A DNA stretch of 64,000 nt from Spirochaetia bacterium (GTDB taxonomy: Bacteria > Spirochaetota > Spirochaetia > CADAEX01). Positions within the stretch are counted from its first letter, which is position 1. The number at the start of each line of letters is the position of its first letter. The position numbers and the translations under genes are program-made. This document shows, piece after piece, positions 17,945-46,324 of this stretch. The notes under the pieces are model-generated. The model was not told the DNA's origin. It saw only the letters and a list, made by a program, of their open reading frames with translations, and ran no database searches. The stretch is from the NCBI GenBank assembly GCA_963662265.2, contig CAXXHA010000001.1, positions 192,001-256,000 of the forward strand. Reading direction: 5' to 3'.

Positions 17945-20086
17945 TTAATTGTTATTTGATATGTCTGCAACTGTTTTATTCATACTCTTTTTTGTATATT
18001 TTATAAAATCCGGAAGTGATAATGGAGGTGAATACAGGTACCCCTGATATTTTGAACATCCTATATTCTTCAGTATATTTTTCTGCTCTTCGTTTTCCAC
18101 ATATTCAGCAATTACATCAAAATCAAGAGATTTCCCGAGATCAACAATTGATTTAATAATATCAAGGCTTCTTTCATTCGTCATAAGCTTTCTGACAAGA
18201 GATCCGTCAAGCTTCACATAATCGAATTTATTACTCTGAAGATACACAAGCGATGTGTGCCCGGTACTGAAGTCATCAATTGCCAGTTTTATTTTATTGT
18301 CACGCAGGATGGCAAAAGCTTCTGAAAGATGCCCCTGGTCCTTCAGCTCACATTCTTCTGTCAGTTCTATCCCGAAAGTATTATCAATAATATTTCTTTC
18401 CTTTACTTTTCCTATAATTCTTTTTATAAGATCAAGATTGTTTAACTGTGCGGAATCTATATTTATTGAAATACTGATTCTTTTCCCGAATTCACTGTTT
18501 ATTAAACTTGTATCATTTATAGCTTTTTCAATAATGCAATCTGTAAGACTAGAAAAGCTTTCATCCTCTTTTGCAATCTCAAGAACAAGGGGAGGAAAAA
18601 TATATTCCAGATTCAGATATTTCCAGCGGAGAAGTGCTTCTGCTGCCACAATCTGTCCGGAATTATCATGCTGCGGCTGGTAGAATAATTCAATTTCCTT
18701 TTTCTCAATTGATTTTCGCAGTTCAAAGGCAAGCTCTTTGGCTGCTTTTGACAGGTAATCATTCCGGCTGAACAACGCAGGACTGCACCCCTTGTCAAGA
18801 GTTATTTTAACATGATCCGACATCTCTTTAACAAGATGGGCTGTTTTAATACCATGTAACCTGTTACCGAGAATTATGAAGGGAGCATAAATAAAGATCC
18901 CGACAGTAATTATAAAAACCTGAAGAAGAAGTCCCCGTATTGAACCGGTAGCAATAAATCCGCTGAAAAATACAGGTGTAGTCCAGGCTACGCTTCGAAC
19001 AACAGCTGGAACAAGACCGCTGATAACAGCAACATATGAAACAGAAAAAGAAACAAGAGGAGTAAGTATAAACGGGATAAACATAAGCGGATTAAGGACA
19101 ATTGGAAGTCCGAAAACCAGTATCTCATTAATATTGAAAAGGACAGGGATAAGAGCACATTTCCCCAGAGATTTCTGTACCTTGAGTTTCGAGAATAAAA
19201 AAATAGATATTATTAAACATATGGATGTACCGCATCCGCCCATCAGAACAAACACATCAAAAAAAGTCTTGATAATAACTTCGCCATGAATATCATTAAA
19301 TACTGTGAGATTAACTGTTTCAAAAGCATTGCTTCCATGGATTCCGAAAAACCATAAAAGAGATTGCATAAACAGGATCAGAAGACCGCTCCAGACAGAT
19401 CTTCCCAGTTTTTCAAACGGAGCTACAAAAAGCTTTGCTATAATTTCATTTAAACCAGCAACATCAAAAACAGCTTTTATCAACAGCGAGGTAACGGCAA
19501 ATATGGAAATTGTCAGCATCATTGGAAGAAGTGTTCTCAAAGCTGTTCTGTAGTCAATATCAATACTGAACTCAGTAAAATCAAAAAAAGCAGAAGTCTT
19601 TCTGAACAGGAACAGGAATAACCTGGCCGACAGAACAGAGCAGACAAGGGCACTGAAAATACTCTGAACATTCAAACCTGTTAACAGTATTACCTGCTGA
19701 CTGGCATTATTATTCATAATCTCAGGTTTAATACCAAGGATTGAAATATATGATGCTATGGCAACAATACAGGACAGGATATTCAGTATCCCTGTTTGCT
19801 GAATAATATTTGATGAATATTTATATGTAACAGTAATCAGCAGGAATACCGAGGCAAGACCGAATGTTGATTCATATAAAAGGTTCAGAAACATTGACAG
19901 TCTTCCATTCCAGAAAGTATTTATAAAATCCTGGAAAGATGGAACAGGAAAGTTTAATATCATGAGAGCTATTGCACCGGTCATGAAAACCGGCATCATC
20001 ATAATGAATCCCTGCCTTATACTTACAAGGACAGTGCTTTGCTCAAGCTTGAGAAAACAATTATAGATAATGTTATTATTTTTCAT
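17945..20086 (-). CDS. PTS EIIC (cellobiose/lactose-type) fused to an EAL phosphodiesterase
   Basis: LWFFGIHG, FNINEILVFGLPIVLNP (EIIC); AEALLRW, DDFSTGHTSL, KLD, IAEYVE, QGY (EAL). Confidence 0.9.
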   Translation of the reverse strand: MKNNNIIYNCFLKLEQSTVLVSIRQGFIMMMPVFMTGAIALMILNFPVPSFQDFINTFWNGRLSMFLNLLYESTFGLASVFLLITVTYKYSSNIIQQTGILNILSCIVAIASYISILGIKPEIMNNNASQQVILLTGLNVQSIFSALVCSVLSARLFLFLFRKTSAFFDFTEFSIDIDYRTALRTLLPMMLTISIFAVTSLLIKAVFDVAGLNEIIAKLFVAPFEKLGRSVWSGLLILFMQSLLWFFGIHGSNAFETVNLTVFNDIHGEVIIKTFFDVFVLMGGCGTSICLIISIFLFSKLKVQKSLGKCALIPVLFNINEILVFGLPIVLNPLMFIPFILTPLVSFSVSYVAVISGLVPAVVRSVAWTTPVFFSGFIATGSIRGLLLQVFIITVGIFIYAPFIILGNRLHGIKTAHLVKEMSDHVKITLDKGCSPALFSRNDYLSKAAKELAFELRKSIEKKEIELFYQPQHDNSGQIVAAEALLRWKYLNLEYIFPPLVLEIAKEDESFSSLTDCIIEKAINDTSLINSEFGKRISISINIDSAQLNNLDLIKRIIGKVKERNIIDNTFGIELTEECELKDQGHLSEAFAILRDNKIKLAIDDFSTGHTSLVYLQSNKFDYVKLDGSLVRKLMTNERSLDIIKSIVDLGKSLDFDVIAEYVENEEQKNILKNIGCSKYQGYLYSPPLSLPDFIKYTKKSMNKTVADISNNN

Positions 20087-33118: not shown

Positions 33119-34726
33119 CTATTTAAGAGTAATTCGTCCCTCTGTAACCGGAGCTATTTTTCCGCCGAGAGATATAATATATTCAATAAACGCATCTCTC
33201 TGCATCAGTGAACTATCATAAAAATCAACCCGATCCTTGAAAACAGAATACCCGTCGCCGCCTGCTGCAAGATATGAGTTTGTTGCAATTCTGTATTCCT
33301 TTGAAGGGTCAACAGCCTTGCCGTTTATCTTGAGATCTGAAATCGTACCGGCAGCTGTATCAATCACGAATGACACACCTTTTGATACCTGAGGCATTGC
33401 GCCGTGTGTGACTGTTTCAGGTGTTCTTTCAAACAGCTTGATAACATCTGAACCCTTGAGAGTTACAAGAGCAACTGAATTATCAAAAGGGAGAACTTCA
33501 TAGATTGTCTGCTTCTTTATTTCCCCCTCGGGAATATCTGTTCTGATTCCCCCTCCGTTCTGGAACGCAAAATCAGCTTTCAGATTCTGATTATTACAGA
33601 ACCAGAGCATTGAATCTGATACTATATTTCCAATTGCTGTTTCCATGTTACGTGTTTCAGCATTCAGGAAAGGAGCAGAGGCCTCTCCAATGGTTTCACT
33701 CAATACAGCATCCACCTTATCAACATAGGGTTTCAGAAGAGCGGCAAGATCTTTATCTTCCGGAATTTCCTTATCAATGAAATGATATACACTGCTTCCA
33801 TCCGCAAGTTTTTCCCTTTTCTTCACATTGACAGGTACAAGATCAAAATCAAGACCAGTTACTTCACCATTTTTAAATTTAAGTAAAACTTTTCCCATAT
33901 AAAGGCCCCATTCACTTGCCTGTACAATGGGAACCTCTTTACCTGATTCATTATTTTTTATCATTACAGGTTCTTTCATTTTGGTATGGGTATGTCCGTC
34001 AATTATCATTGCAATCCCGGGCACCTGTGAAGCAAGACGTTTTGATCCCTCTTCTGCACTGTCATAAAGTCCCATATGAACCAGTGCTATTACAATATCA
34101 GCTTTTTCCTTAAGTTCAGGAACAAGCTCATTTGCAACTTCAACTTCATCTTTAAAAACATAACCTTTGATATTTTCAGGATTTCCTGTTTCAGCAGTTC
34201 CTGAATCCAGAAGGCCGAGCAGCGCCACCTTGAAAGCCCCGTATTCCTTGATTATATAGGGTTCAACATTATCGATATAGCTTCCGTCCTCTTTTACAAC
34301 ATTTGCGCAGAGCCATGGAAATTCTGATAAAGCAATCTGAGACTGCATATCTTTCGCACTTGGATCAAATTCATGGTTACCCATTGCAAGGGCATCATAG
34401 CCTATATAATTCATGCCGATTATATCCGGTTCAGCCTTGAAAAAATTTGATTCGGGACGGCCAGTATTAAAGTCCCCTGCGCTCAGCACAAGTACATTTT
34501 CATTACCAGATTTTATCTCTTTCACAAGTGTTGCCTGTGCAGGAAGTCCCCCCTGACCGGGAGCGGGGTAATTGTAAAAAGCCACAGGATGCCCGTGATG
34601 GTCATTTGTATGAAGTACAACAAGACTGTGCTCAACATCAGGCTGGGCAATGGGAGAATGGCTGCATGATATAAGAGTCAGCAGCACTACCGAAATGATC
34701 AGAAATAAACGCAGTGTTTTTTTCAT
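33119..34726 (-). CDS. 5'-nucleotidase / UDP-sugar hydrolase lipoprotein (UshA-like, intact)
   Basis: Lipobox LISC; LHTNDHHG, AGDFNTG, GNHEFD, HMG, DGHTH; NGGGIR, LPFDN, GGDGY. Confidence 0.93.
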   Translation of the reverse strand: MKKTLRLFLIISVVLLTLISCSHSPIAQPDVEHSLVVLHTNDHHGHPVAFYNYPAPGQGGLPAQATLVKEIKSGNENVLVLSAGDFNTGRPESNFFKAEPDIIGMNYIGYDALAMGNHEFDPSAKDMQSQIALSEFPWLCANVVKEDGSYIDNVEPYIIKEYGAFKVALLGLLDSGTAETGNPENIKGYVFKDEVEVANELVPELKEKADIVIALVHMGLYDSAEEGSKRLASQVPGIAMIIDGHTHTKMKEPVMIKNNESGKEVPIVQASEWGLYMGKVLLKFKNGEVTGLDFDLVPVNVKKREKLADGSSVYHFIDKEIPEDKDLAALLKPYVDKVDAVLSETIGEASAPFLNAETRNMETAIGNIVSDSMLWFCNNQNLKADFAFQNGGGIRTDIPEGEIKKQTIYEVLPFDNSVALVTLKGSDVIKLFERTPETVTHGAMPQVSKGVSFVIDTAAGTISDLKINGKAVDPSKEYRIATNSYLAAGGDGYSVFKDRVDFYDSSLMQRDAFIEYIISLGGKIAPVTEGRITLK

Positions 34727-36144: not shown

Positions 36145-37260
36145 TTACTGCAGGGTGTTTCTGCCCTTAATGCTGTTAACAAATTCAGATGGTGTAATCC
36201 CCATTTCTTCCTTGAATACCCTGTTGAAAGTGCTTTTTGAAGGGAACCCTGCATCAAAAGCTATATCAATAATCGGATGGAATTTCTGAACATCACTGTT
36301 AATTTGGTCTATGAAATATTCAAGCCTTTTTCTGTTAAGATAAGTTCTAAAACTTACACCGCAGCATCGATTCACTGCAAAAGAGAGGCGGTTAGGATGC
36401 ACCTCAAATTCAGAAGCAAGATCCCTTATAACAAGATCTGGATTATGAAAAACACCCTCTGTAAACCTAGCACTTACCATATCAAGAAGGTTTTTACACT
36501 CAATTTCGGAACAGAGGGGCTCTGTTTTCCCGGAAGTTTTTGGATATTCAAAAGCAGATATTTCCGGGGCAATCAGAAGAAAAAAAGATATAACGTAAAT
36601 AAGAACTGCCATAGACGTTGTAAGTATAAAAAACGGAAGGACAATTCCGCCTGCAAGATCCTGTGTAACAGAAGGGGGAAGCGCAACATAGGCAAATGCG
36701 GCAAGAACTCCTGACGGAATAATGATAAGCAGCCTGGCACAGAGTTTTTTGGAGCCGGACAGTTTTTCCGATTTCACACCGAATGCAGTTCTTCCAGACA
36801 TAACAATATATACAATATTCAAAATAACTTTTAATCCGTTTCTGACAGGAAGCCACAGCGGAGGATTCCCGGTAAACACATCTGTAATGAAATTCTGATA
36901 TTCAGATGCAGACATAGATATGAGAGTAAATACAAGAGCAGATAATTCCAGAAAGTAAGGTATAAAATGAATAAAGAGAGGCTTAGGCGTTTTCAATCTG
37001 TCGCTTCCAAGTTCTCTTATATACCACCACAAAAGCGGGCCGAAAAGAAACGGAAGCGGTGCTGTCATAGGGTATATCCAGGGCAATTTCAGAAGAATAT
37101 CTAGATTCCATGTTGGTATTGTTGCAAGGCGCACAGAAAAAACAATCAGAAGCAGAGCCAGCGGCATTATTTTTCCATGTCTGAATCTGAAGAGAATCGA
37201 TAGGAGTATTATAAATCCCTGAATCGCGCCCAGAGAAGCTATTAATATCAAAGCCTGCAT
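36145..37260 (-). CDS. Membrane-embedded AraC family regulator
   Basis: About 7 TM; GPLLWWY; C-terminal IIDIAFDAGFPSKSTFNRVFK. Confidence 0.88.
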   Translation of the reverse strand: MQALILIASLGAIQGFIILLSILFRFRHGKIMPLALLLIVFSVRLATIPTWNLDILLKLPWIYPMTAPLPFLFGPLLWWYIRELGSDRLKTPKPLFIHFIPYFLELSALVFTLISMSASEYQNFITDVFTGNPPLWLPVRNGLKVILNIVYIVMSGRTAFGVKSEKLSGSKKLCARLLIIIPSGVLAAFAYVALPPSVTQDLAGGIVLPFFILTTSMAVLIYVISFFLLIAPEISAFEYPKTSGKTEPLCSEIECKNLLDMVSARFTEGVFHNPDLVIRDLASEFEVHPNRLSFAVNRCCGVSFRTYLNRKRLEYFIDQINSDVQKFHPIIDIAFDAGFPSKSTFNRVFKEEMGITPSEFVNSIKGRNTLQ

Positions 37261-37376: not shown

Positions 37377-38643
37377 CTACCTGAACACAACCCTGTTTCT
37401 CCCTTCCTGTTTTGCCTTGTACAGGAAATCATCAGCCTGTTTTATGATTTCAGATGCTGTTTCACCGTTATATTCTGATACACCGGCGCTTATTGTAACT
37501 GAGAAATTTTCACTTCTGAAAACAAGCTGTTCAATTTTTTTTCTGAAAGATTCAGCATCTTCTACAGCATCCTCTAGTCCCCTGTTTTTAAGAATAACAA
37601 GAAATTCCTCACCGCCGTACCTGCCGCACACAGACTCAGGACCGAATTCTGCCTTTAAAAGCTCTGCAATACTTAAAAGAACTCTGTCCCCTGTCTGATG
37701 TCCGTAGTTATCATTTACTGATTTAAAATAATCAATATCCAGAAGTATTACAGAGAATGGAATTTTAACTTTTTTAGTTTTTTCTGCAAGCTCATAAACC
37801 TTATCACAAATATACTTATGGTTATAAATGTTTGTAAGGCTGTCAGTTACAGCCATTTTTTTCAATTTCCTTGTAGAGAAAATATGATCTTGCATTTGCC
37901 TTGAGACGGGCCATGAGAATGGCATTGTCAAAAGGCTTGCTTATATAATCATCTGCCCCATGCATTATAGCATGCGACACAATCTTGAAATTGGAGACAC
38001 CTGACACAACAATAATTACACAGTTTTTGTTTCTCTGCCTCAGTTTCATTATTATTTCTTCACCTGTATAACGGGGAAGTACCATATCGACAAAATAGAA
38101 TGTGTAATTATCAGCATTTTTCAAAAACTCATCAGGATCAGAATAATAGGAAACATTTTCAATTTTATTCAGCTTGAATATACTGCTGATAACACTGAGC
38201 TCAAGCCTGCTGTCATCAAGTACTGCTATTCTTTCCTTCTGTATTTTTTTAAGAAGAGTATCCTGCCTGAGTATTGTATCAAAATAATTTTCAAGACGTT
38301 CGACAGTCATATCTTTCTTCAGAATATAATCCACTATCCCCAGAGAAAACAACCTGGTTCTGAGTTCCAGAGATTCTGTTGAAGTAAGTATAATTACAGG
38401 AATAGATGAGTATTCTGAACTGTTCAGTCTTACTATGAAATCCTCACCAGTCCCGTCCTTTAGCTGGTTACCGGTAATAATTATATCTATATCATTTTTC
38501 TCTAAAATATCAAAAGCTTCTGATATTTTTTCTACCGGTATGTATTCAAATCCCCTGGGTTCAATTATCATTTTCACATATGATTTGAATAATCTGCCGG
38601 ATTCAAGCTGTAATACTTTTCCCAAACCAGTACACCTTTCCAA
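37377..38643 (-). CDS. REC-REC-GGDEF diguanylate cyclase, one frameshift
   Basis: First REC lacks the phosphoacceptor Asp; second has DD/D/S/K; TDSLT, DIDYFKSVND, RYGGEEF. Extra A in the run at about 37856-37862. Confidence 0.85.
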
Positions 38644-38807: not shown

Positions 38808-41699
38808 TTAAAAAACAGCAAGAACAGTTGTCTTGTATTTATCTTCATCAAAATTATAAAGCGTTCTGATTTTAATTACGCTCCTGACAGGTGTCGACAT
38901 CCAGCTCAGTTCAAAATTGAAACCGCATCCGACTGAATAGAGGTAATCAGAATCTCTTTCCCCTGTTTCAAATGTTATATCGTTGAACAGGTTAAGGTAT
39001 ATTCTTGAAAGATACGCAAAACTGCTGAACGGGATATCAGGATAAAAGAGAGGCAGAACATAATCTGCTGATCCGTAGAATGCAGAGTTGTAAAGTTTAA
39101 GATCATATCCTCTTGATACTGCAATATCTGACGGAGGAAAAACAGAACTATCATTAAGGTTCTTATACCAGGATCCATTGAACTTCAAACCATGGTTTTC
39201 AAAAAGCCCGGGAACATAAACTGATGCATCCGACTTGACAAGAGAATAAATATCAGATGTTGCTGAATCAATATAACTCTGCCTGAGCTGGATACCGAGC
39301 TCAGGATAAAGATCCTGCAGAGCCATATCTTTAAGCACGGAATAATAAACTGAATAAATAACAGGTATTTCAAACCCGTTCCTGTTTACACCGGTACTGC
39401 TTTCACTTTTCCAGTCTGAATAATCTGTAAACTCTGCAGTGGCAGAGAATGAAAGATGTCTTTCATAAAATGATGAGGAAAAATTGAACGGAATTTGCAA
39501 GCCAAGTATAGCAGTATTCTCCCTCCATGATTCCTCATATTCCGTATCATCTGAAAGCTCTGTTGTAACAGTTGTGTTTTTCAGCCTGTAGCCTGCTTTT
39601 ATGAGTGGAAAAAATCCTCCGTATTCCAGAAGTGTCTGAAAATTATAGTTTTCCTCTTCAAAACTGTATGAGCCTGACAGGGATAATGAAAGATCATTGA
39701 ATATATCGTTTGATTTAAGATTTATGCCCATACTGTCATCTTCAGAGTCATATATCAGTCCCCAGGAATGAAAGTTAAGGAGATTGAGTCCTCTTGAGTA
39801 TTCTGATTCATTATACTTCTTCTGAGGAATATTTTTTTCTGCAAGCAGAGGTTCATTCCCGCCCGGAAGCAGTCCCTTCATATCAACATTTCTGAAAAAA
39901 GAAGGGGTTTTAATGTTTTCATCAGAACCAGGTTTTTCAATTCTATCGGTACCTGAAAAAAAGTTTTCGGAAGAGTTTTGACCGGCATTATTCAGCCCGG
40001 TTACAGCTATTTTCCACCCGCCGGAAGTGTAGTCTGCAAATATAACAGAACTGTCCTCTTTTATTAAATATCTGCCTGAAGCAAACCTGCTGTCAGTTAT
40101 TCTTCGCTCAGACATAGTATCTGTATCAAGAGTATAAACCGCATCTATCCCGTTTTCAGGGGAAACATAATAAAGTGTATTATCTCTCAAATACGGATAT
40201 TTAATATTTATCCAGCTGAAATCCTTTAAAAGAATCTTTTCACCGGTTACAGCATCTGCTTTAAATACAGCAATTCCTCTGCTTCCTGATGCTGTATAAA
40301 CAACTGATTTTCCGTCTTCAGTAAACCTTGGAAAGGTTATTACATAGTTTTCACTGTTTTCAAGAGAGGAAATAAGCTGACCCTTTTCTGCAGAGATTAT
40401 TCTGATTATATGTTTCCTGTCAGGCGCCACTTCAACCGCAGCAATCTTTTTTCCGTCAGGACTTAGATCAGGTGAATAATAATATCCTTTCGAAGTCAGT
40501 TTTCTCCTGTTTCTGAAATCTGAATCAGCTGTAAATATATCTGAATATATTCTGTTGCCCCACCTGATATCACTTACAGCTTCGCTCCATACAAAGGACT
40601 TGTTTTTATAGCTGTAGGCTGAAGAGCTGTAGGGAACTTCTGATATTTTCTCTTCGCTGCCGTCAGGGCTGATCCTGTATATTGTGGTTATATTATCAAG
40701 AGATAATTTTACTGCAATTATATCATCGCCATCACAGCCGAGAGGTTCATATGAGTTGAAACCTTTATCAGCTCCAGTAATATAGCTGTACACGGAAAAA
40801 CCTCTCTCAGCCTCCTGTTTTTCCCATTCAGATTTATAATATTCCATTGCTTCTTCATGGATCTCTGCAACCCTTTTTCCTGTAACTTTTTTCACGGAAC
40901 TGTTGAAACGGAGAGGGATAAATGAAAGCTTTGCAGTTCTTTTGAGTATTTCATTCATCGCCTCTGTTCCGTACTTCATCTTTATATAAGTCACAAGAAG
41001 ATATCCGTGATTATAATGGTTAGGATAATAATCACCATATGAATTATTCAGAGCACTGTAATAACTGTATTTCTTATTGGAAAGGAGAATAGACTTGATC
41101 TCTTTTTCAAAATCAGGAAGCCTGCCTCTTCCCCCCTCTGTTAAGAGGGTTTCTGTAAGAACAGCATCGCCTTCAAAATACCACCCGGGGACTGAAAGGT
41201 GTATAAATACAGATCTCCCCCCCTCTCCGGTGAAGATCCCGATCAGTTTATTGAATCCTGAATTAAGCTTATCTATCTGTGCCATATGGTATGTTTCATG
41301 CGATGTAAGCAGTTTGTACCATTCAGTTGTTCCTGCGAAAGCTCCCTGGGGAGGAACAGAATAAAACTCTGACTTTTCCGGCGCTGATGCAACATAACCG
41401 TTGGGAAGGGCATAGGTGTTATTGAGAACAATTGTCCACTTTGACATTTCTGTATCAAGAATACCTTCAAGCACATTATTTTCATATTCAAGCATATTCA
41501 GTATTCTCTCAGCATCATTTCTAAGCTCAGCAGGATATATAATTTTAAAATTTTCTGTTTCTATTTTTTTCCAGTCAATTCCCGGCGGGAACTGGACAGT
41601 GTCAATTCCGAATTCATACTGGTCAGTATCTGAAAATCCGGGTTCTGAATATAAAACTGCTGAACACAGCAGCAGCAGGATAATATATATATTCTTCAT
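38808..41699 (-). CDS. Exported/outer-membrane protein: HExxH metallopeptidase-like domain, TolB-like propeller, C-terminal barrel-like region
   Basis: Signal peptide; SHETYH, WYFEGDA; SPDGKKIA repeats; amphipathic strands with a terminal Phe. AGGAG RBS. Confidence 0.7.
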   Translation of the reverse strand: MKNIYIILLLLCSAVLYSEPGFSDTDQYEFGIDTVQFPPGIDWKKIETENFKIIYPAELRNDAERILNMLEYENNVLEGILDTEMSKWTIVLNNTYALPNGYVASAPEKSEFYSVPPQGAFAGTTEWYKLLTSHETYHMAQIDKLNSGFNKLIGIFTGEGGRSVFIHLSVPGWYFEGDAVLTETLLTEGGRGRLPDFEKEIKSILLSNKKYSYYSALNNSYGDYYPNHYNHGYLLVTYIKMKYGTEAMNEILKRTAKLSFIPLRFNSSVKKVTGKRVAEIHEEAMEYYKSEWEKQEAERGFSVYSYITGADKGFNSYEPLGCDGDDIIAVKLSLDNITTIYRISPDGSEEKISEVPYSSSAYSYKNKSFVWSEAVSDIRWGNRIYSDIFTADSDFRNRRKLTSKGYYYSPDLSPDGKKIAAVEVAPDRKHIIRIISAEKGQLISSLENSENYVITFPRFTEDGKSVVYTASGSRGIAVFKADAVTGEKILLKDFSWINIKYPYLRDNTLYYVSPENGIDAVYTLDTDTMSERRITDSRFASGRYLIKEDSSVIFADYTSGGWKIAVTGLNNAGQNSSENFFSGTDRIEKPGSDENIKTPSFFRNVDMKGLLPGGNEPLLAEKNIPQKKYNESEYSRGLNLLNFHSWGLIYDSEDDSMGINLKSNDIFNDLSLSLSGSYSFEEENYNFQTLLEYGGFFPLIKAGYRLKNTTVTTELSDDTEYEESWRENTAILGLQIPFNFSSSFYERHLSFSATAEFTDYSDWKSESSTGVNRNGFEIPVIYSVYYSVLKDMALQDLYPELGIQLRQSYIDSATSDIYSLVKSDASVYVPGLFENHGLKFNGSWYKNLNDSSVFPPSDIAVSRGYDLKLYNSAFYGSADYVLPLFYPDIPFSSFAYLSRIYLNLFNDITFETGERDSDYLYSVGCGFNFELSWMSTPVRSVIKIRTLYNFDEDKYKTTVLAVF

Positions 41700-41740
41700 C
41701 AATATTTCACTCCTATGATAAATATACAGGTTCTTTTGCA

Positions 41741-41893
41741 GGAAAAAAACTGCTTTCAGACAGTTAATATGAAGATTACTCAATTCTGGATATTGCTTTT
41801 GAAGTAGGTTTCAGTTCAAAATCCTCGTTCAACAGTATTTTCAAAAACAGAATCGGGCAGACACCTTCTGAATTCAGAAAAAAATATCAATAA
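41741..41893 (+). pseudogene. Relic of an AraC-type HTH C-terminus
   Basis: GKKLLSDS*YEDYSILDIAFEVGFSSKSSFNSIFKNRIGQTPSEFRKKYQ*; internal TAA at 41765; no start codon. Confidence 0.8.
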
Positions 41894-42003
41894 GCAGTCT
41901 ATAAAAAAGGAGAGAACTGTTTCCCGCATGCTTTGACAAATAAACATCTTTATTAATTATTACTTTAATTGCAAAATACCAGCTTTAAAATATAATTATA
42001 GAC

Positions 42004-43509
42004 ATGAAAACTATTTTTCCCGGAACATTGCGGCCTGTAATTCTGAAAGCATTACTTTTTCTTATTTTCATAGTTTACGCACACACTGACCCTGTAAATA
42101 TAAAAATACTCTATGTATCAAATCTGCCTGATATTGAGACAGGGGAAAACAGGGGGGGACTTGCGGAACTCGGGACTCTTGTAAAACAATACAGGAACTC
42201 TGATGACAATTTCATATTTCTTCACGGGGGAGACTCTCTTGCCCCAAGCATAATGTCATCATTTGATTACGGAACTCACATGATTGATATATTAAACAGC
42301 ATCCTCCCTGAAGTAATGGCTGTTGATGAAAGGGAATTTGCCTATTCAGAAGATCAATTAATTCTGAGAATCAGTGAAGCGGGATTTCCAATAATTTCAT
42401 CAAATACTACAGATACTATTACAAATAAACCGCTTGAGGGGATGGAAAGGCATAAAATATTCTCAGTCGGAAGTTATAAAATAGGAGTTTTCTCCATTCT
42501 CGCAGCAGAAGTCAGGGAAAGTTACCTGGCAAAAAGGATTTTTGTTAACAGCAACCCTGCTTTTATCGAACAGGAAGCAAGGATGCTAAGGGAAAAGGGG
42601 GCAGATATCATTATACTGCTTACCGGAGAGAACATAACAAATACAGAAAAACTGTTGAATGAAGGGCTGGTTGATATAATCTTAAAATCAGAAACAGAAA
42701 ATGACAGGATAATTCCGCTGGAAAAGGGATTTTTCGCCCAACACGGGTCATCAGACGGGAATTCCCTGCTGCTCAATATTGAAGTTGAAAAAAAAGGGGA
42801 TGTAACAGAGGTAGATACAACAGGCACCTTCGTACTGCTCAACACATGTGGTCCTGACAGGGAAATTCAGGAGAAAATCGACTATTATCTCGGAACGCTG
42901 AATAAAATAATGAGTGCTGTTTCCGGAACAACTTCATTACCCCTCAATACGAAGAGGGATAAAGTAAGAACAGAAGAAAATGCATTCGGAAATTTTGTTG
43001 CCGATTCAATGAGAGACTATTACAATACAGATATTGCAGTCATCAATGGAGGCTCAATAAGAGGCAACAGGTATTACAATCCGGGAACTGACTTTACAAG
43101 AAAAATAATACAGGGAGAACTGCCGTTTTACAATAAAGTCATTCCTGTATATGTCTCAGGCAGGCAAATCCTTCAGATGCTTGAACACGGATTAAGCAGA
43201 ATTGAAGAGATTAACGGAGGCTTTCTCCAGGTCTCAGGAATGAAAGTAAAATACAGTCCTGATGCGGAAAAAGGTAACAGGGTAATTTCTGTGACTATAG
43301 GTGGAAAACTGCTCGAACAGAAAAAAGCATATACTCTTTCAGTTTTGGATTACATGAAAAAGGGCGGAGACGGATTTAACATGCTTAAAAGCGCAGAAGT
43401 TATTGAGAATATGAAAGAGCCTCTAAACAGCTGGGAAGTGCTGAGACTTTACATCGAGAAAAAACAGATTATTGGACCTGTTATAGAAGGGCGGCTGAAA
43501 AGAAAATGA
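42004..43509 (+). CDS. Exported 5'-nucleotidase homolog with a degenerate active site
   Basis: Signal peptide. YVSNLPD / GGD / DEREF / KSETE replace HTNDHHG / GD / GNHEF / GHTH. C-domain keeps RDKVR, NGGSIRG, LPFYN, QVSG, GGDGF. Confidence 0.85.
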   Translation: MKTIFPGTLRPVILKALLFLIFIVYAHTDPVNIKILYVSNLPDIETGENRGGLAELGTLVKQYRNSDDNFIFLHGGDSLAPSIMSSFDYGTHMIDILNSILPEVMAVDEREFAYSEDQLILRISEAGFPIISSNTTDTITNKPLEGMERHKIFSVGSYKIGVFSILAAEVRESYLAKRIFVNSNPAFIEQEARMLREKGADIIILLTGENITNTEKLLNEGLVDIILKSETENDRIIPLEKGFFAQHGSSDGNSLLLNIEVEKKGDVTEVDTTGTFVLLNTCGPDREIQEKIDYYLGTLNKIMSAVSGTTSLPLNTKRDKVRTEENAFGNFVADSMRDYYNTDIAVINGGSIRGNRYYNPGTDFTRKIIQGELPFYNKVIPVYVSGRQILQMLEHGLSRIEEINGGFLQVSGMKVKYSPDAEKGNRVISVTIGGKLLEQKKAYTLSVLDYMKKGGDGFNMLKSAEVIENMKEPLNSWEVLRLYIEKKQIIGPVIEGRLKRK

Positions 43510-45158
43510 AATTATCCGGGAATAAATCAGGCAAAATAAAAAAACGGAGCATAGCCGGTCCTATTACCCTGAGCCAGTCAGTAATAATATTCATGATGAT
43601 GCTGGTAATGGGATTATCACTTTTCTTCTTTATAAATATCAGGATTTCATTTCTGAATTTTTCTGAACAGACTATCCACGGAATCAAAAACAGCTCAGAC
43701 CTGAACAATGAAGTAAAACAGCTTCTTATAGATACAGAGAGGCTGATGGCCTCAGATTCAAATCCCGAGAGAAGACTTGCATATGAGGATATTCTAAGGT
43801 CAACTGAAATAATCAAAGAAATACAGGAAAGGAAAAAATTCAACGACAGGAATGTAAGGAACCACATAGAAATTATTACTGACACACTGAATGAACTCAA
43901 CTCACTTGTGGAAGAAAAAATCAAATATAATAATCTTGCACTAGAAAAAATGTATGATCTCATGCTGTTTCTTGAAAAATACCAGGATCTTGAAAGAAAA
44001 AAAGAAAGAGCTGTTTTTAATGCAAATACATTCAGAAACACAATTTCCTGGTACTTCAAGATATCCGGTATAACAAGACAGGCCGGTGCAGTTTTCCAGA
44101 TGAATATTTTTTATGATATCAACAAGACTGAAAAACAGATAATATCGGATCTGGCAGAAATGGAAAAACAGCTGTATGATTTTCCAGACTCTTCAAGGCA
44201 TTTTTATGAATCTGATTTAGAAAATCTAAAAAAAATTATTCTGGGAGAAACAGGGTTATTAAACCTTGTTAAGGAAAAAACAAAAATTTCACTCAAGACA
44301 ACAGGAAGGGGAAACTTCACAAGAACACTGCTGAATGATTTCATCTACATAAGTTCAAATATTTTCAACCGTGTAATTGAATATACTGAAATTCAGACAG
44401 CAAGACTCACAAACCTGATAAACAGCTTCTTTGATTTTTTTCTTATACTTCTTATTGCCACCCTGATGATTTCCATAGGCATGGTCCTTTATGTGAGGAA
44501 AAAACTGACAAAGAGGCTGCTGCGCCTTAACGGTGAAATTCTTGAAAAAGTTGCAGGCTTTGACATAGGGATAACTGTTGAGGGGAATGATGAATTATCT
44601 GACATGGCAAAAAGTTTTCTTTTCTATGAAAACGAAGTAAAACTGAGAGAAGAGGAGCTGAACAAAATAGCTTCCCAGGATTTCCTCACAGAAATAAGCA
44701 ACAGAAGACATTTTATTGAACTGGCTGAAAAGGAAATTGCAAGAGGGAGAAGATACAGCTTCCCGGTAATTCTGCTGATGCTGGATATTGATTATTTCAA
44801 AAAAGTCAACGACACATACGGACACTATTCAGGAGATGTTGTACTTAAAGAATTTACAAATCTCTGTAAAAGCATTATAAGGGAAAATGATATTTTCGGC
44901 AGGCTTGGCGGTGAGGAATTTGCAATAATACTTCCTGAAACAGATCTTGACGGGGGAATAAAACTTGCAGAGCGTCTTAGAACAGCAGTAGAGGAAAGCA
45001 GCTGGACAATAGATGATGAAGTTATAAAAATCACGGTAAGTATCGGGGCAGCAGAATGCAGCTGCAGCAGTGATACTGCGCTCGAAGTTGTATTGAAAAA
45101 AGCAGACAGCGCCTTGTACAGGGCGAAAGATGAGGGGAGAAACAGGACCTGTTATTAA
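43506..45158 (+). CDS. Membrane diguanylate cyclase (periplasmic helical domain, HAMP, GGDEF)
   Basis: 2 TM; HAMP GNDELSDMA; DIDYFKKVND; RxxD I-site REND; GGEEF. ATGA overlap with the upstream gene. Confidence 0.92.
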   Translation: MKLSGNKSGKIKKRSIAGPITLSQSVIIFMMMLVMGLSLFFFINIRISFLNFSEQTIHGIKNSSDLNNEVKQLLIDTERLMASDSNPERRLAYEDILRSTEIIKEIQERKKFNDRNVRNHIEIITDTLNELNSLVEEKIKYNNLALEKMYDLMLFLEKYQDLERKKERAVFNANTFRNTISWYFKISGITRQAGAVFQMNIFYDINKTEKQIISDLAEMEKQLYDFPDSSRHFYESDLENLKKIILGETGLLNLVKEKTKISLKTTGRGNFTRTLLNDFIYISSNIFNRVIEYTEIQTARLTNLINSFFDFFLILLIATLMISIGMVLYVRKKLTKRLLRLNGEILEKVAGFDIGITVEGNDELSDMAKSFLFYENEVKLREEELNKIASQDFLTEISNRRHFIELAEKEIARGRRYSFPVILLMLDIDYFKKVNDTYGHYSGDVVLKEFTNLCKSIIRENDIFGRLGGEEFAIILPETDLDGGIKLAERLRTAVEESSWTIDDEVIKITVSIGAAECSCSSDTALEVVLKKADSALYRAKDEGRNRTCY

Positions 45159-45422: not shown

Positions 45423-46324
45423 TCAGGATCCAGCTTTCAGCGTGAGCTTTTCCTTTTCCCTCAGAAACCCGACAAATCCTGCAGAAATAACAGAAAGGCT
45501 TATTATATTAACAGGCCTGAACTGATCCCCGAGAATAACAACACCCATTACCATTGAAAATACAGGGACAAAGTTGATGAAAAAATTAGTCCTGGAAACA
45601 CCTATTTTCTGGATAGAATCCTGCTGAAGAGTGTATCCGAGAAATGTGGAAAAAATCCCCATAAACAGATATACGCCCCCATATATTAGCAGAATAGGAA
45701 AACGGAGATATACCATTAACAAGAATAAACGGAAGAAGAAAAAGCGAAGCACCTGAAAGGGTGTAGAAAGTTGAAACAACTGATGATATTCCGCAGCCAT
45801 GTTTTCTGATTAAGAGAGAATAAACAACCCATATAACCATGGCAGCTGTCATCAGAAAAGTACCTGTACTGAATCCACCTGAAAAAAGAAGAGCAAAATC
45901 CCACTTCACAATAATTGTCAGAACCCCGAGAAATGCGGTCAAAAGAAAAAAACAGCCCCTTTCTGTTCATCGGCTCTGAAAAAATAAGAAAACCAAGCAA
46001 CGCGGAAAGCAGGGGATTGAGAGTATTTATCGAGCTTGATTCAAGTACATCAATTGTGAGTAGAGCGGCAAAAAACAGAAGATGATATCCCACCATTCCG
46101 AAAATACCTATAAGCATTATGACTAAAGCTTTACGAAGCGGCAGGCGGAAAGAGGTTTTCTTTATCTCTCCGTATATGAAAAGACAGACAACTGCGACTG
46201 CAAAGCGGTAGAAACTCATCTCAACCCCGCTTACAACAGCCCCTCCGATCTTGCCTGCAATAAAAGCACCGGCCCAACAGAGCGCTGCAATAGTCATATA
46301 AATATAAGATCTGTTCATCTTCAC
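45423..46324 (-). CDS. DMT/EamA family transporter, two frameshifts
   Basis: CWAGAFIAGK, FYRFA, GYHLLFF, FINFVPVF spread over three frames. Indels near 45950 and 45678. Confidence 0.85.

Follow-up and report, generated by a model that had tools for sequence, protein, structure and literature searches.

Bacterial membrane sensors can work with a periplasmic partner. TorS requires a binding-protein partner. Its accessory periplasmic protein TorT is encoded beside it; in NspS-MbaA and ScrB-ScrC, a periplasmic binding protein is co-encoded with a membrane cyclic di-GMP (c-di-GMP) enzyme; and in HptA-HptS and PstS-CtpL, a phosphate-bearing ligand (hexose phosphate and inorganic phosphate) is sensed through an accessory protein of the classical solute-binding type, according to the sections of PMC8050422 consulted. 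The dCache purine sensors (McpH family) couple extracytoplasmic purine sensing to cyclases, kinases and phosphatases, and bind bases and nucleosides directly, without an accessory protein or pseudoenzyme in the portion of PMC12358799 consulted. Here we describe two overlapping genes, 42004 and 43506 (named after their first positions), in a 64,000-nucleotide stretch of DNA from a Spirochaetia bacterium (contig CAXXHA010000001.1, positions 192,001 to 256,000; hereafter the window). They encode a degenerate 5'-nucleotidase and a membrane diguanylate cyclase, and the upstream protein is probably a TorT-like co-receptor, built from a pseudoenzyme, that senses a periplasmic nucleotide or nucleoside.

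The pair resembles TorT-TorS and NspS-MbaA in its way of working but belongs to neither, nor to the active 5'-nucleotidases. With TorT-TorS it shares the sensor fold, a detectable sequence kinship and a layout of two transmembrane segments (TMs) with HAMP. However, the partner here is a pseudoenzyme of nucleotidase fold, whereas TorT is a Peripla_BP_1 solute-binding protein for trimethylamine N-oxide; the genes here are co-oriented and overlapping, the output is mostly GGDEF rather than a hybrid histidine kinase signaling to TorR, and no tor genes were found among 113 neighbors of 30 loci scanned. NspS-MbaA and ScrB-ScrC differ in their SBP_bac_8 or SBP_bac_3 proteins, dCache-like sensor domains, GGDEF-EAL outputs and ligands (polyamines or S-signal), and CtpL has an HBM domain of a fold related to that of the sensor described here (PMC8050422, same sections). 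UshA and CD73 have the same two-domain hinged fold and C-domain nucleotide contacts, but the 42004 protein is a pseudoenzyme without the dimetal ligands and the His-Asp dyad, and intact relatives never adjoin the sensor in the loci examined. In the consulted sections of PMC8050422, neither "nucleotidase" nor "nucleoside" occurs, and the tabulated sensor partners are solute-binding protein families; the consulted part of PMC13700151 deals with an HD-domain pseudo-phosphodiesterase, a different system, and that of an HD-GYP preprint does not describe a pseudo-nucleotidase/sensor pair. Our search of the open-access literature, with subscription papers and supplements outside it, returned no description of such a pair, which is probably an undescribed way of detecting extracellular nucleotides and changing the c-di-GMP level.

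Gene 42004 encodes a degenerate 5'-nucleotidase with a conserved nucleotide pocket

The pair was picked out by a sequence-only reading of the window, and the open reading frames (ORFs), the ATGA at 43506-43509 through which the cyclase start overlaps the upstream stop, and the full-length 501-amino-acid frame of 42004, free of frameshifts, are all present as that reading described them. Active 5'-nucleotidases carry the dimetal motifs DxH, GD, GNHE, H and GHxH, with CD73 N117, H118 and H243 taken from PMC7508162. The 42004 protein retains GD alone (D77, equivalent to CD73 D85), its degenerate motifs being YVSNLPD (residues 37-43), GD (76-77), DEREF (108-112), LLTGE (205-209) and KSETE (228-232), and its C-domain keeps RDKVR (318-322), NGGSIRG (348-354), LPFYN (373-377) and GGDGF (454-458); every motif quoted for the loss of the metal site and the conservation of the C-domain was found in the protein. 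Pfam detected 5_nucleotid_C at E 4e-36 and no Metallophos domain at E<=0.01, and the protein scored far under the cut-offs of all NCBIfam nucleotidase models (98.6 against a cut-off of 600 for UshA). The N-domain was recognized by features, and an AlphaFold2 model (predicted local distance difference test, pLDDT, 95; predicted template modeling score, pTM, 0.90) shows a complete two-domain 5'-nucleotidase fold. The model is closer to the closed forms of CD73 (TM-scores of 0.86-0.89) than to the open ones (about 0.58). Export of the protein is suggested by a hydrophobic stretch near its N-terminus (residues 8-26). The comparator at 33119, taken at the outset for an intact paralog, is indeed intact, with Pfam matches to both Metallophos and 5_nucleotid_C, but it is a distant homolog (24% identity) outside the clade.

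To place the substitutions, we mapped residues by alignment to CD73 chain 6hxw_A, converting the numbering by our own count (offset 26). Besides N117, we take the CD73 metal ligands to be D36, H38, D85, H220 and H243. CD73 contacts the phosphonate through N117, H118 and R395, contacts the ribose through R354, R395 and D506, and stacks the base between F417 and F500 (consulted portion of PMC7508162). In the 42004 protein, D36, H38, N117, H118, D121, H220 and H243 are N40, P42, E109, R110, A113, G208 and E230, the catalytic His-Asp dyad (H118/D121) being replaced by R110/A113. The pocket, by contrast with the metal site, is kept: R322, N348, G350, R353, F375, Y450 and D456 match CD73 R354, N390, G392, R395, F417, F500 and D506. 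Judged by these residues, the protein would be unable to build a dimetal centre and would be catalytically inactive.

The same pattern holds across a 53-row alignment of paired pseudoenzyme/sensor loci. Equivalents of R354, N390, G392, R395 and D506 are invariant (53/53), and the stacking positions are aromatic (F/Y at F417 in 52/53, Y/F at F500 in 53/53). The catalytic H118 position is never His (0/53) and is Arg in 43/53 (residues seen R/S/K/G/Q), Asp is absent from the D121 position (0/53) and found at D36 in 4/53, and the H38 position has no His (0/53). At D85 there is Asp in 21/53, Gly in 16 and Ala in 9, and at N117 Lys in 30/53, Glu in 13 and Asn in 3 (residues seen K/E/H/N/Q/R). The H220 and H243 positions vary freely, both columns being less surely aligned, with His at the neighboring column 209 in 5 rows and at 230 in 5. 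Additional basic residues are common in the family (R376 in 37/53, R406 in 33/53). A separate locus (L223; G464:C66, 612-2991, minus strand) has a sensor that ends after TM2, without an output domain, and Lys at the R395 position, the sole change seen there.

Degenerate copies adjoin a sensor gene and intact sisters do not

For linkage, we examined the best 79 of 427 confirmed genome loci (46 degenerate, 32 intact, 1 without the N-domain) and the best 80 of 304 confirmed metagenome loci (48 degenerate, 24 intact, 8 without the N-domain); the metagenome loci had no part in building the sensor profile and were counted only with at least 500 nt downstream. In genomes, a 2-TM sensor followed 46/46 degenerate copies vs 0/32 intact sister genes, which bears out the proposal that motif loss goes with an adjoining signaling gene. 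By Pfam, the next gene encodes a GGDEF protein at 27 of the 46 degenerate loci and a histidine kinase at 16. Of the remaining three, L007 has a sensor that runs off the contig end, L055 a GGDEF sensor with a frameshift and L080 an intact GGDEF-type sensor. The cyclase output first proposed for the pair holds for the window and the GGDEF loci but gives way to a histidine kinase in 16/46 genome loci. All 46 sensors have the TM-periplasmic-TM layout and homologous periplasmic domains, L018 and L023 being the weakest. Intact genome loci had no GGDEF/HisKA in the next ORF (0/31) and no GGDEF gene anywhere in the locus (0/32). In metagenomes, a sensor was downstream of 39/41 degenerate copies (38 flagged, plus L090 by inspection) vs 0/19 intact ones.

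The arrangement also holds when the search starts from the sensor. In an evenly drawn sample of 351 genomes from one gammaproteobacterial order, the pseudoenzyme was upstream of 14/14 strong sensor matches (E<1e-40), and a 2-TM sensor-type gene was next to all 16 pseudoenzyme copies, the two remaining copies standing before a divergent 2-TM GGEEF protein and a truncated, output-less sensor. Among 301 Thermodesulfobacteriota genomes, the arrangement was found at 3/3 strong places. Sensor output switched at least three times on the tree while the pair was retained, a GGDEF gene lies directly behind the kinase in 6/16 kinase loci (REC-GGDEF confirmed for three), and the divergence of the two proteins is correlated (Mantel r 0.68, 0/999). 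One genome has a second copy of the cassette, with a frameshifted sensor (L205; G002:C1, 2325-5575). Orphan copies L118 (4944-6413), L119 and L107 sit between a topoisomerase IV subunit gene and a transaldolase gene; none adjoins a sensor, and their pocket is intact.

The degenerate proteins form one clade under purifying selection

Of 8000 candidates scored in a word-based search, 130 were homologs; some 50 of these were 30-96% identical, and almost all of the 50 lacked a Metallophos annotation. A full HMMER search gave more, of which we took the best 150 of 10,476 matches. The degenerate proteins form a single clade with branch support of 100 (FastTree, 96 rows; IQ-TREE LG+G4, 36 rows), and nearest to them are alphaproteobacterial nucleotidases with an intact catalytic site. 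The clade has members in Spirochaetota, Thermodesulfobacteriota, Deferribacterota and Alpha- and Gammaproteobacteria, mostly marine and sediment bacteria, and occurrence is patchy (1/251 genomes of the window's phylum; 16/351 of the gammaproteobacterial order). Both domains of the pseudoenzyme are under purifying selection. In 12/13 pairs (one pair saturated), the ratio of nonsynonymous to synonymous substitution rates (dN/dS) ranges over 0.04-0.27 in the N-domain and 0.04-0.19 in the C-domain, similar to intact controls; the window gene and its 79% ortholog give 0.13. Neutral evolution, which the sequence-only reading had named as evidence that would count against it, is thus not what we found (dN/dS 0.04-0.27 in 12/13 pairs).

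Two clade proteins (P0135, P0195) join the pseudoenzyme in one chain to SBP_bac_3 repeats, a TM, PAS and a SpoIIE output, and a third (P0167) is fused to SBP_bac_3; these three have two or three SBP_bac_3 domains and carry the pseudoenzyme in-chain without a TorS-like domain. The pocket residues are kept in the SpoIIE fusions too. A word search for longer fused homologs returned 4 proteins, all with an intact Metallophos match. The window's 33119 gene falls outside both the degenerate clade and the intact sister group, and local duplication of this gene as the origin of 42004 was ruled out by the 24% identity and separate tree branches. In the intact alphaproteobacterial sister clade (intact loci of L016-L083), motif I is DxD, not DxH, and motif V is GG[HD]DH; a different range of substrates may go with this variant metal site.

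The partner sensor has a TorS-fold periplasmic domain

The 43506 cyclase has two hydrophobic segments, GGEEF and RxxD (RENDIFGRLGGEEF), and carries the GG[DE]EF active site, the DxDxFKxxNDxxGH motif and the RxxD inhibitory site (I-site). Family sensors with a GG[DE]EF match have GGEEF in 59/59 and RxxD in 54/59. Of the layout first proposed for this protein, the two TMs, GGEEF and RxxD are present, but Pfam detected no HAMP in the 43506 protein; it gave weak HAMP matches in 13/24 orthologs (best E 3e-5).

Because a sequence search of the PDB with the sensor profile gave only coiled-coil noise, a fold search was needed. The periplasmic domain, modeled at pLDDT 91, had TorS as its top Foldseek match (E 5e-6, TM-score 0.70). 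VIA-align to TorS gave Z 17.9, a root-mean-square deviation of 3.1 and 231 aligned residues, tied with E. coli TorS, with lower scores for McpZ (Z 15.9) and McpS (Z 15.4), and Atlas ranked a TorS cluster second (0.96). Pfam TorS_sensor_domain did not match the 43506 protein itself and gave weak matches under the cut-off in 7/37 members (best E 4e-4), and the sensor family profile reached true TorS at E about 1e-9 to 1e-11. Weaker profile matches (E 1e-6 to 1e-11) include true TorS, one of them beside TorT (L206), and kinases that match best against PgtB, below the PgtB cut-off; none of the 16 examined of 21 such matches had a nucleotidase upstream. The analogy with TorT/TorS drawn at the outset is thereby strengthened, the partner's periplasmic domain having the TorS sensor fold and the pair passing complex prediction (below). 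Elsewhere, a different TorS-like sensor kinase is preceded by an SBP_bac_3 protein (L207:2747-6248), which raises the possibility that binding proteins of several unrelated kinds partner the TorS-like fold.

The pseudoenzyme is predicted to bind the sensor domain

The pseudoenzyme very likely partners the adjoining sensor. Modeled with the sensor's periplasmic domain, as had been proposed as a check, it gave an interface score (ipSAE) of 0.67 (0.65-0.68), compared with 0.01 for the best of 3 controls; the mark is reached by 116/157 solved and 2/215 mismatched pairs, counts that are rough with our own alignments. The runs had at least 39% of contacts in common, with partner pLDDT of at least 87. 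On the sensor side, the predicted interface involves GRGNFxRxLxxD (259-278), the most conserved sensor motif, and on the pseudoenzyme side residues 87-103 and 121-129, the hinge helix (295-306) and residues 474-482, with D88, H92, D95, N98 and E125-A-x-F-P129 in the docking face. The predicted interface columns exceed random sets in conservation (139 and 30 of 10,000). We know of no solved nucleotidase-TorS complex, and none was among the Foldseek and VIA structure matches.

A proposed sensing cassette and its alternatives

We propose that the two genes are a self-contained sensing cassette operating like TorT-TorS, a reading of the pseudoenzyme as receptor partner that selection and the linkage to signaling genes support. 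The upstream protein, putatively exported and modeled as a hinged two-domain 5'-nucleotidase, retains in its C-domain the clamp on base and ribose, together with both arginines that bind phosphate, and would lack the dimetal centre. In most members, Lys in place of the Asn metal ligand and Arg in place of the catalytic His would hold a 5'-phosphate uncleaved, and for this reason a nucleotide (nucleoside mono- or diphosphate, a relative of nicotinamide adenine dinucleotide (NAD) or a nucleotide sugar) seems somewhat more likely as ligand than a bare nucleoside. Docking on the TorS-fold domain is predicted through outer N-domain helices, the hinge helix and a C-domain helix, and ligand-driven hinge closure would act by way of TM2 and the HAMP-like linker on the output, here a GGEEF diguanylate cyclase with putative control of c-di-GMP, elsewhere a hybrid histidine kinase that is often followed by a REC-GGDEF gene. 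More tentatively, the family could be a dedicated receptor for intact extracellular nucleotides (AMP/ADP/ATP, NAD, nucleotide sugars), with Lys/Arg in place of the metals and with interchangeable outputs in diguanylate cyclases, histidine kinases and SpoIIE phosphatases; we give this extended version a little less than even credence.

Several observations weigh against the proposal. The window protein has Glu at the N117 position, and Y376 and G406 instead of the two family arginines, so the phosphate-clamp argument is weaker for this protein, and the preference for a phosphorylated ligand appears less clear in its subgroup. The complex was folded 1:1 from our own paired alignments, outside the tool's calibration; D88, G90 and H92 of the docking face are also fixed in the intact sister enzymes, and since much of the face is common to them, its conservation may be partly structural. 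Inter-protein covariation (mutual information, 53 pairs) gave no usable signal (mean z 0.49). Motif loss and linkage arose once, in one clade, so the linkage counts represent one event plus long retention and are not independent, and metagenome copies L118 and L119 have no adjoining sensor, with the pocket still intact. No third gene is conserved among the 113 neighbors of the 30 loci, so genome context gives no hint of the ligand; an MFS/nucleoside-symporter-like gene occurs in 1/30 loci.

These points have to be set beside other explanations of the pair. The protein could still be an enzyme, with altered or slow chemistry on one hard metal or none, that makes or removes the signal or reports by turnover; the window protein has carboxylates near the old site (D77, E109, E230, E232), both domains are conserved, and the model is in a closed, catalytic-like form. 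This is unlikely, in our view: enzymes fix their catalytic residues, as the 32 intact sisters do, whereas the 53 rows hold no conserved replacement catalytic set and vary at the D85, N117, H118, H220 and H243 positions, and a closed AlphaFold form says nothing on state. The complex prediction and strict linkage would fit equally well a ligand-independent, YfiR-like accessory subunit that stabilizes or represses a sensor which itself detects envelope stress or a small acid in its helical bundle, and HBM domains of similar fold do bind organic acids directly (McpS-malate, Z 15.4). That idea leaves unexplained an invariant pocket of five polar residues and two aromatics at 30-45% overall identity, which is equally kept in the SpoIIE fusions and whose only observed change, Lys at the R395 position, belongs to the copy with the output-less sensor (G464); we consider it quite unlikely.

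We rate as very unlikely a receptor for some other ligand, such as a cyclic dinucleotide, an oligonucleotide, a DNA or RNA end, or a non-nucleotide phospho- or sulfo-compound, since each pocket residue corresponds to a mononucleotide contact of CD73. The cleft could be wider without the metal site, many members gain R376 (37/53) and R406 (33/53), and related enzymes reportedly act on cyclic dinucleotides (PMC4905662 and PMC13229355); for a sulfo-compound, SoxB has the same fold, but its match is far weaker (E 4e-12 vs 1e-55 to 1e-60). Further frameshifted genes in the window and an AraC remnant directly upstream might suggest a decaying pseudogene or a chance neighbor of the cyclase. To this we attach next to no weight, as the ORF is full length with dN/dS of 0.13 against the 79% ortholog, linkage is family-wide in both directions and divergence is correlated (Mantel r 0.68, 0/999); the selection and linkage results refute it.

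Coordinates and surroundings of the gene pair

Table 1. Features of the pseudoenzyme/sensor pair and the comparator gene, in window positions
Feature	Position	Strand	Basis
Pseudo-5'-nucleotidase, 501 aa, UshA/CD73 two-domain fold; proposed periplasmic co-receptor	42004..43509	+	
Probable Sec signal peptide, residues 1-28, hydrophobic core 8-26	42004..42087	+	Inferred, hydropathy only
Degenerate metallophosphoesterase domain; only D77 (CD73 D85) kept	42091..42870	+	
Predicted sensor-docking face, residues 87-103 and 121-129	42262..42390	+	Complex model
5_nucleotid_C domain, nucleotide pocket intact	42928..43389	+	
Membrane diguanylate cyclase, 550 aa: TM1, TorS-fold periplasmic domain, TM2, HAMP-like linker, GGDEF	43506..45158	+	
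Periplasmic double four-helix-bundle sensor domain, residues 46-308, TorS fold	43641..44429	+	
Family motif GRGNFxRxLxxD, residues 259-278; centre of predicted interface, sensor side	44280..44339	+	
TM2 (312-330) and HAMP-like linker	44439..44651	+	
GGDEF domain: GGEEF active site and RxxD inhibitory site	44670..45146	+	
Intact UshA-like 5'-nucleotidase, 535 aa; comparator only, distant homolog outside clade	33119..34726	-	

Directly upstream of the pair lies a 33-amino-acid remnant of an AraC-type helix-turn-helix (41777-41894, plus strand), with a stop before it and 61% identity to the end of the AraC gene at 36145-37260, which suggests a rearrangement or insertion scar. A promoter scan found 11 promoter-like sites vs 10.4 expected, so two promoter candidates at 41933-41996 do not exceed what chance would give.

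Genes of c-di-GMP signaling and chemosensing abound in the window: two HD-domain regulators (23215, 29577), two methyl-accepting chemotaxis proteins, an SBP-PAS-GGDEF-EAL protein (49925) and a single ORF (17945-20086, minus strand) in which a PTS EIIC domain and an EAL phosphodiesterase domain are fused. A REC-REC-GGDEF gene (37377-38643, minus strand) has one apparent frameshift near 37860-37880, and an EamA transporter gene (45423-46324, minus strand) runs across three frames (two shifts); relatives of both are intact in L005, at 415 and 299 amino acids. A 991-amino-acid exported protein (38808-41783, minus strand) has a weak PD40 match only; by eye, it seems to combine a peptidase-like domain with a beta-propeller and a barrel at the C-terminus.

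Implications

If the co-receptor reading is true, an enzyme fold has been turned into a receptor, unlike the classical solute-binding proteins tabulated in the consulted sections of PMC8050422. The evolutionary step is visible in an intact sister clade, one loss event and several output swaps, and a testable ligand class can be named for an unannotated TorS-like domain. The database label "bifunctional metallophosphatase/5'-nucleotidase" is wrong for the degenerate clade, and a non-hydrolyzing nucleotide clamp could be a biosensor scaffold. If true, the proposal also means that bacteria sense phosphorylated nucleotides outside the cell and tie this to biofilm signaling; should the ligands be intact nucleotides, from sources such as lysed cells, hosts or digested DNA, the family would be the bacterial equivalent of purinergic danger sensing, and its fold a new one among sensor-coupled binding proteins.

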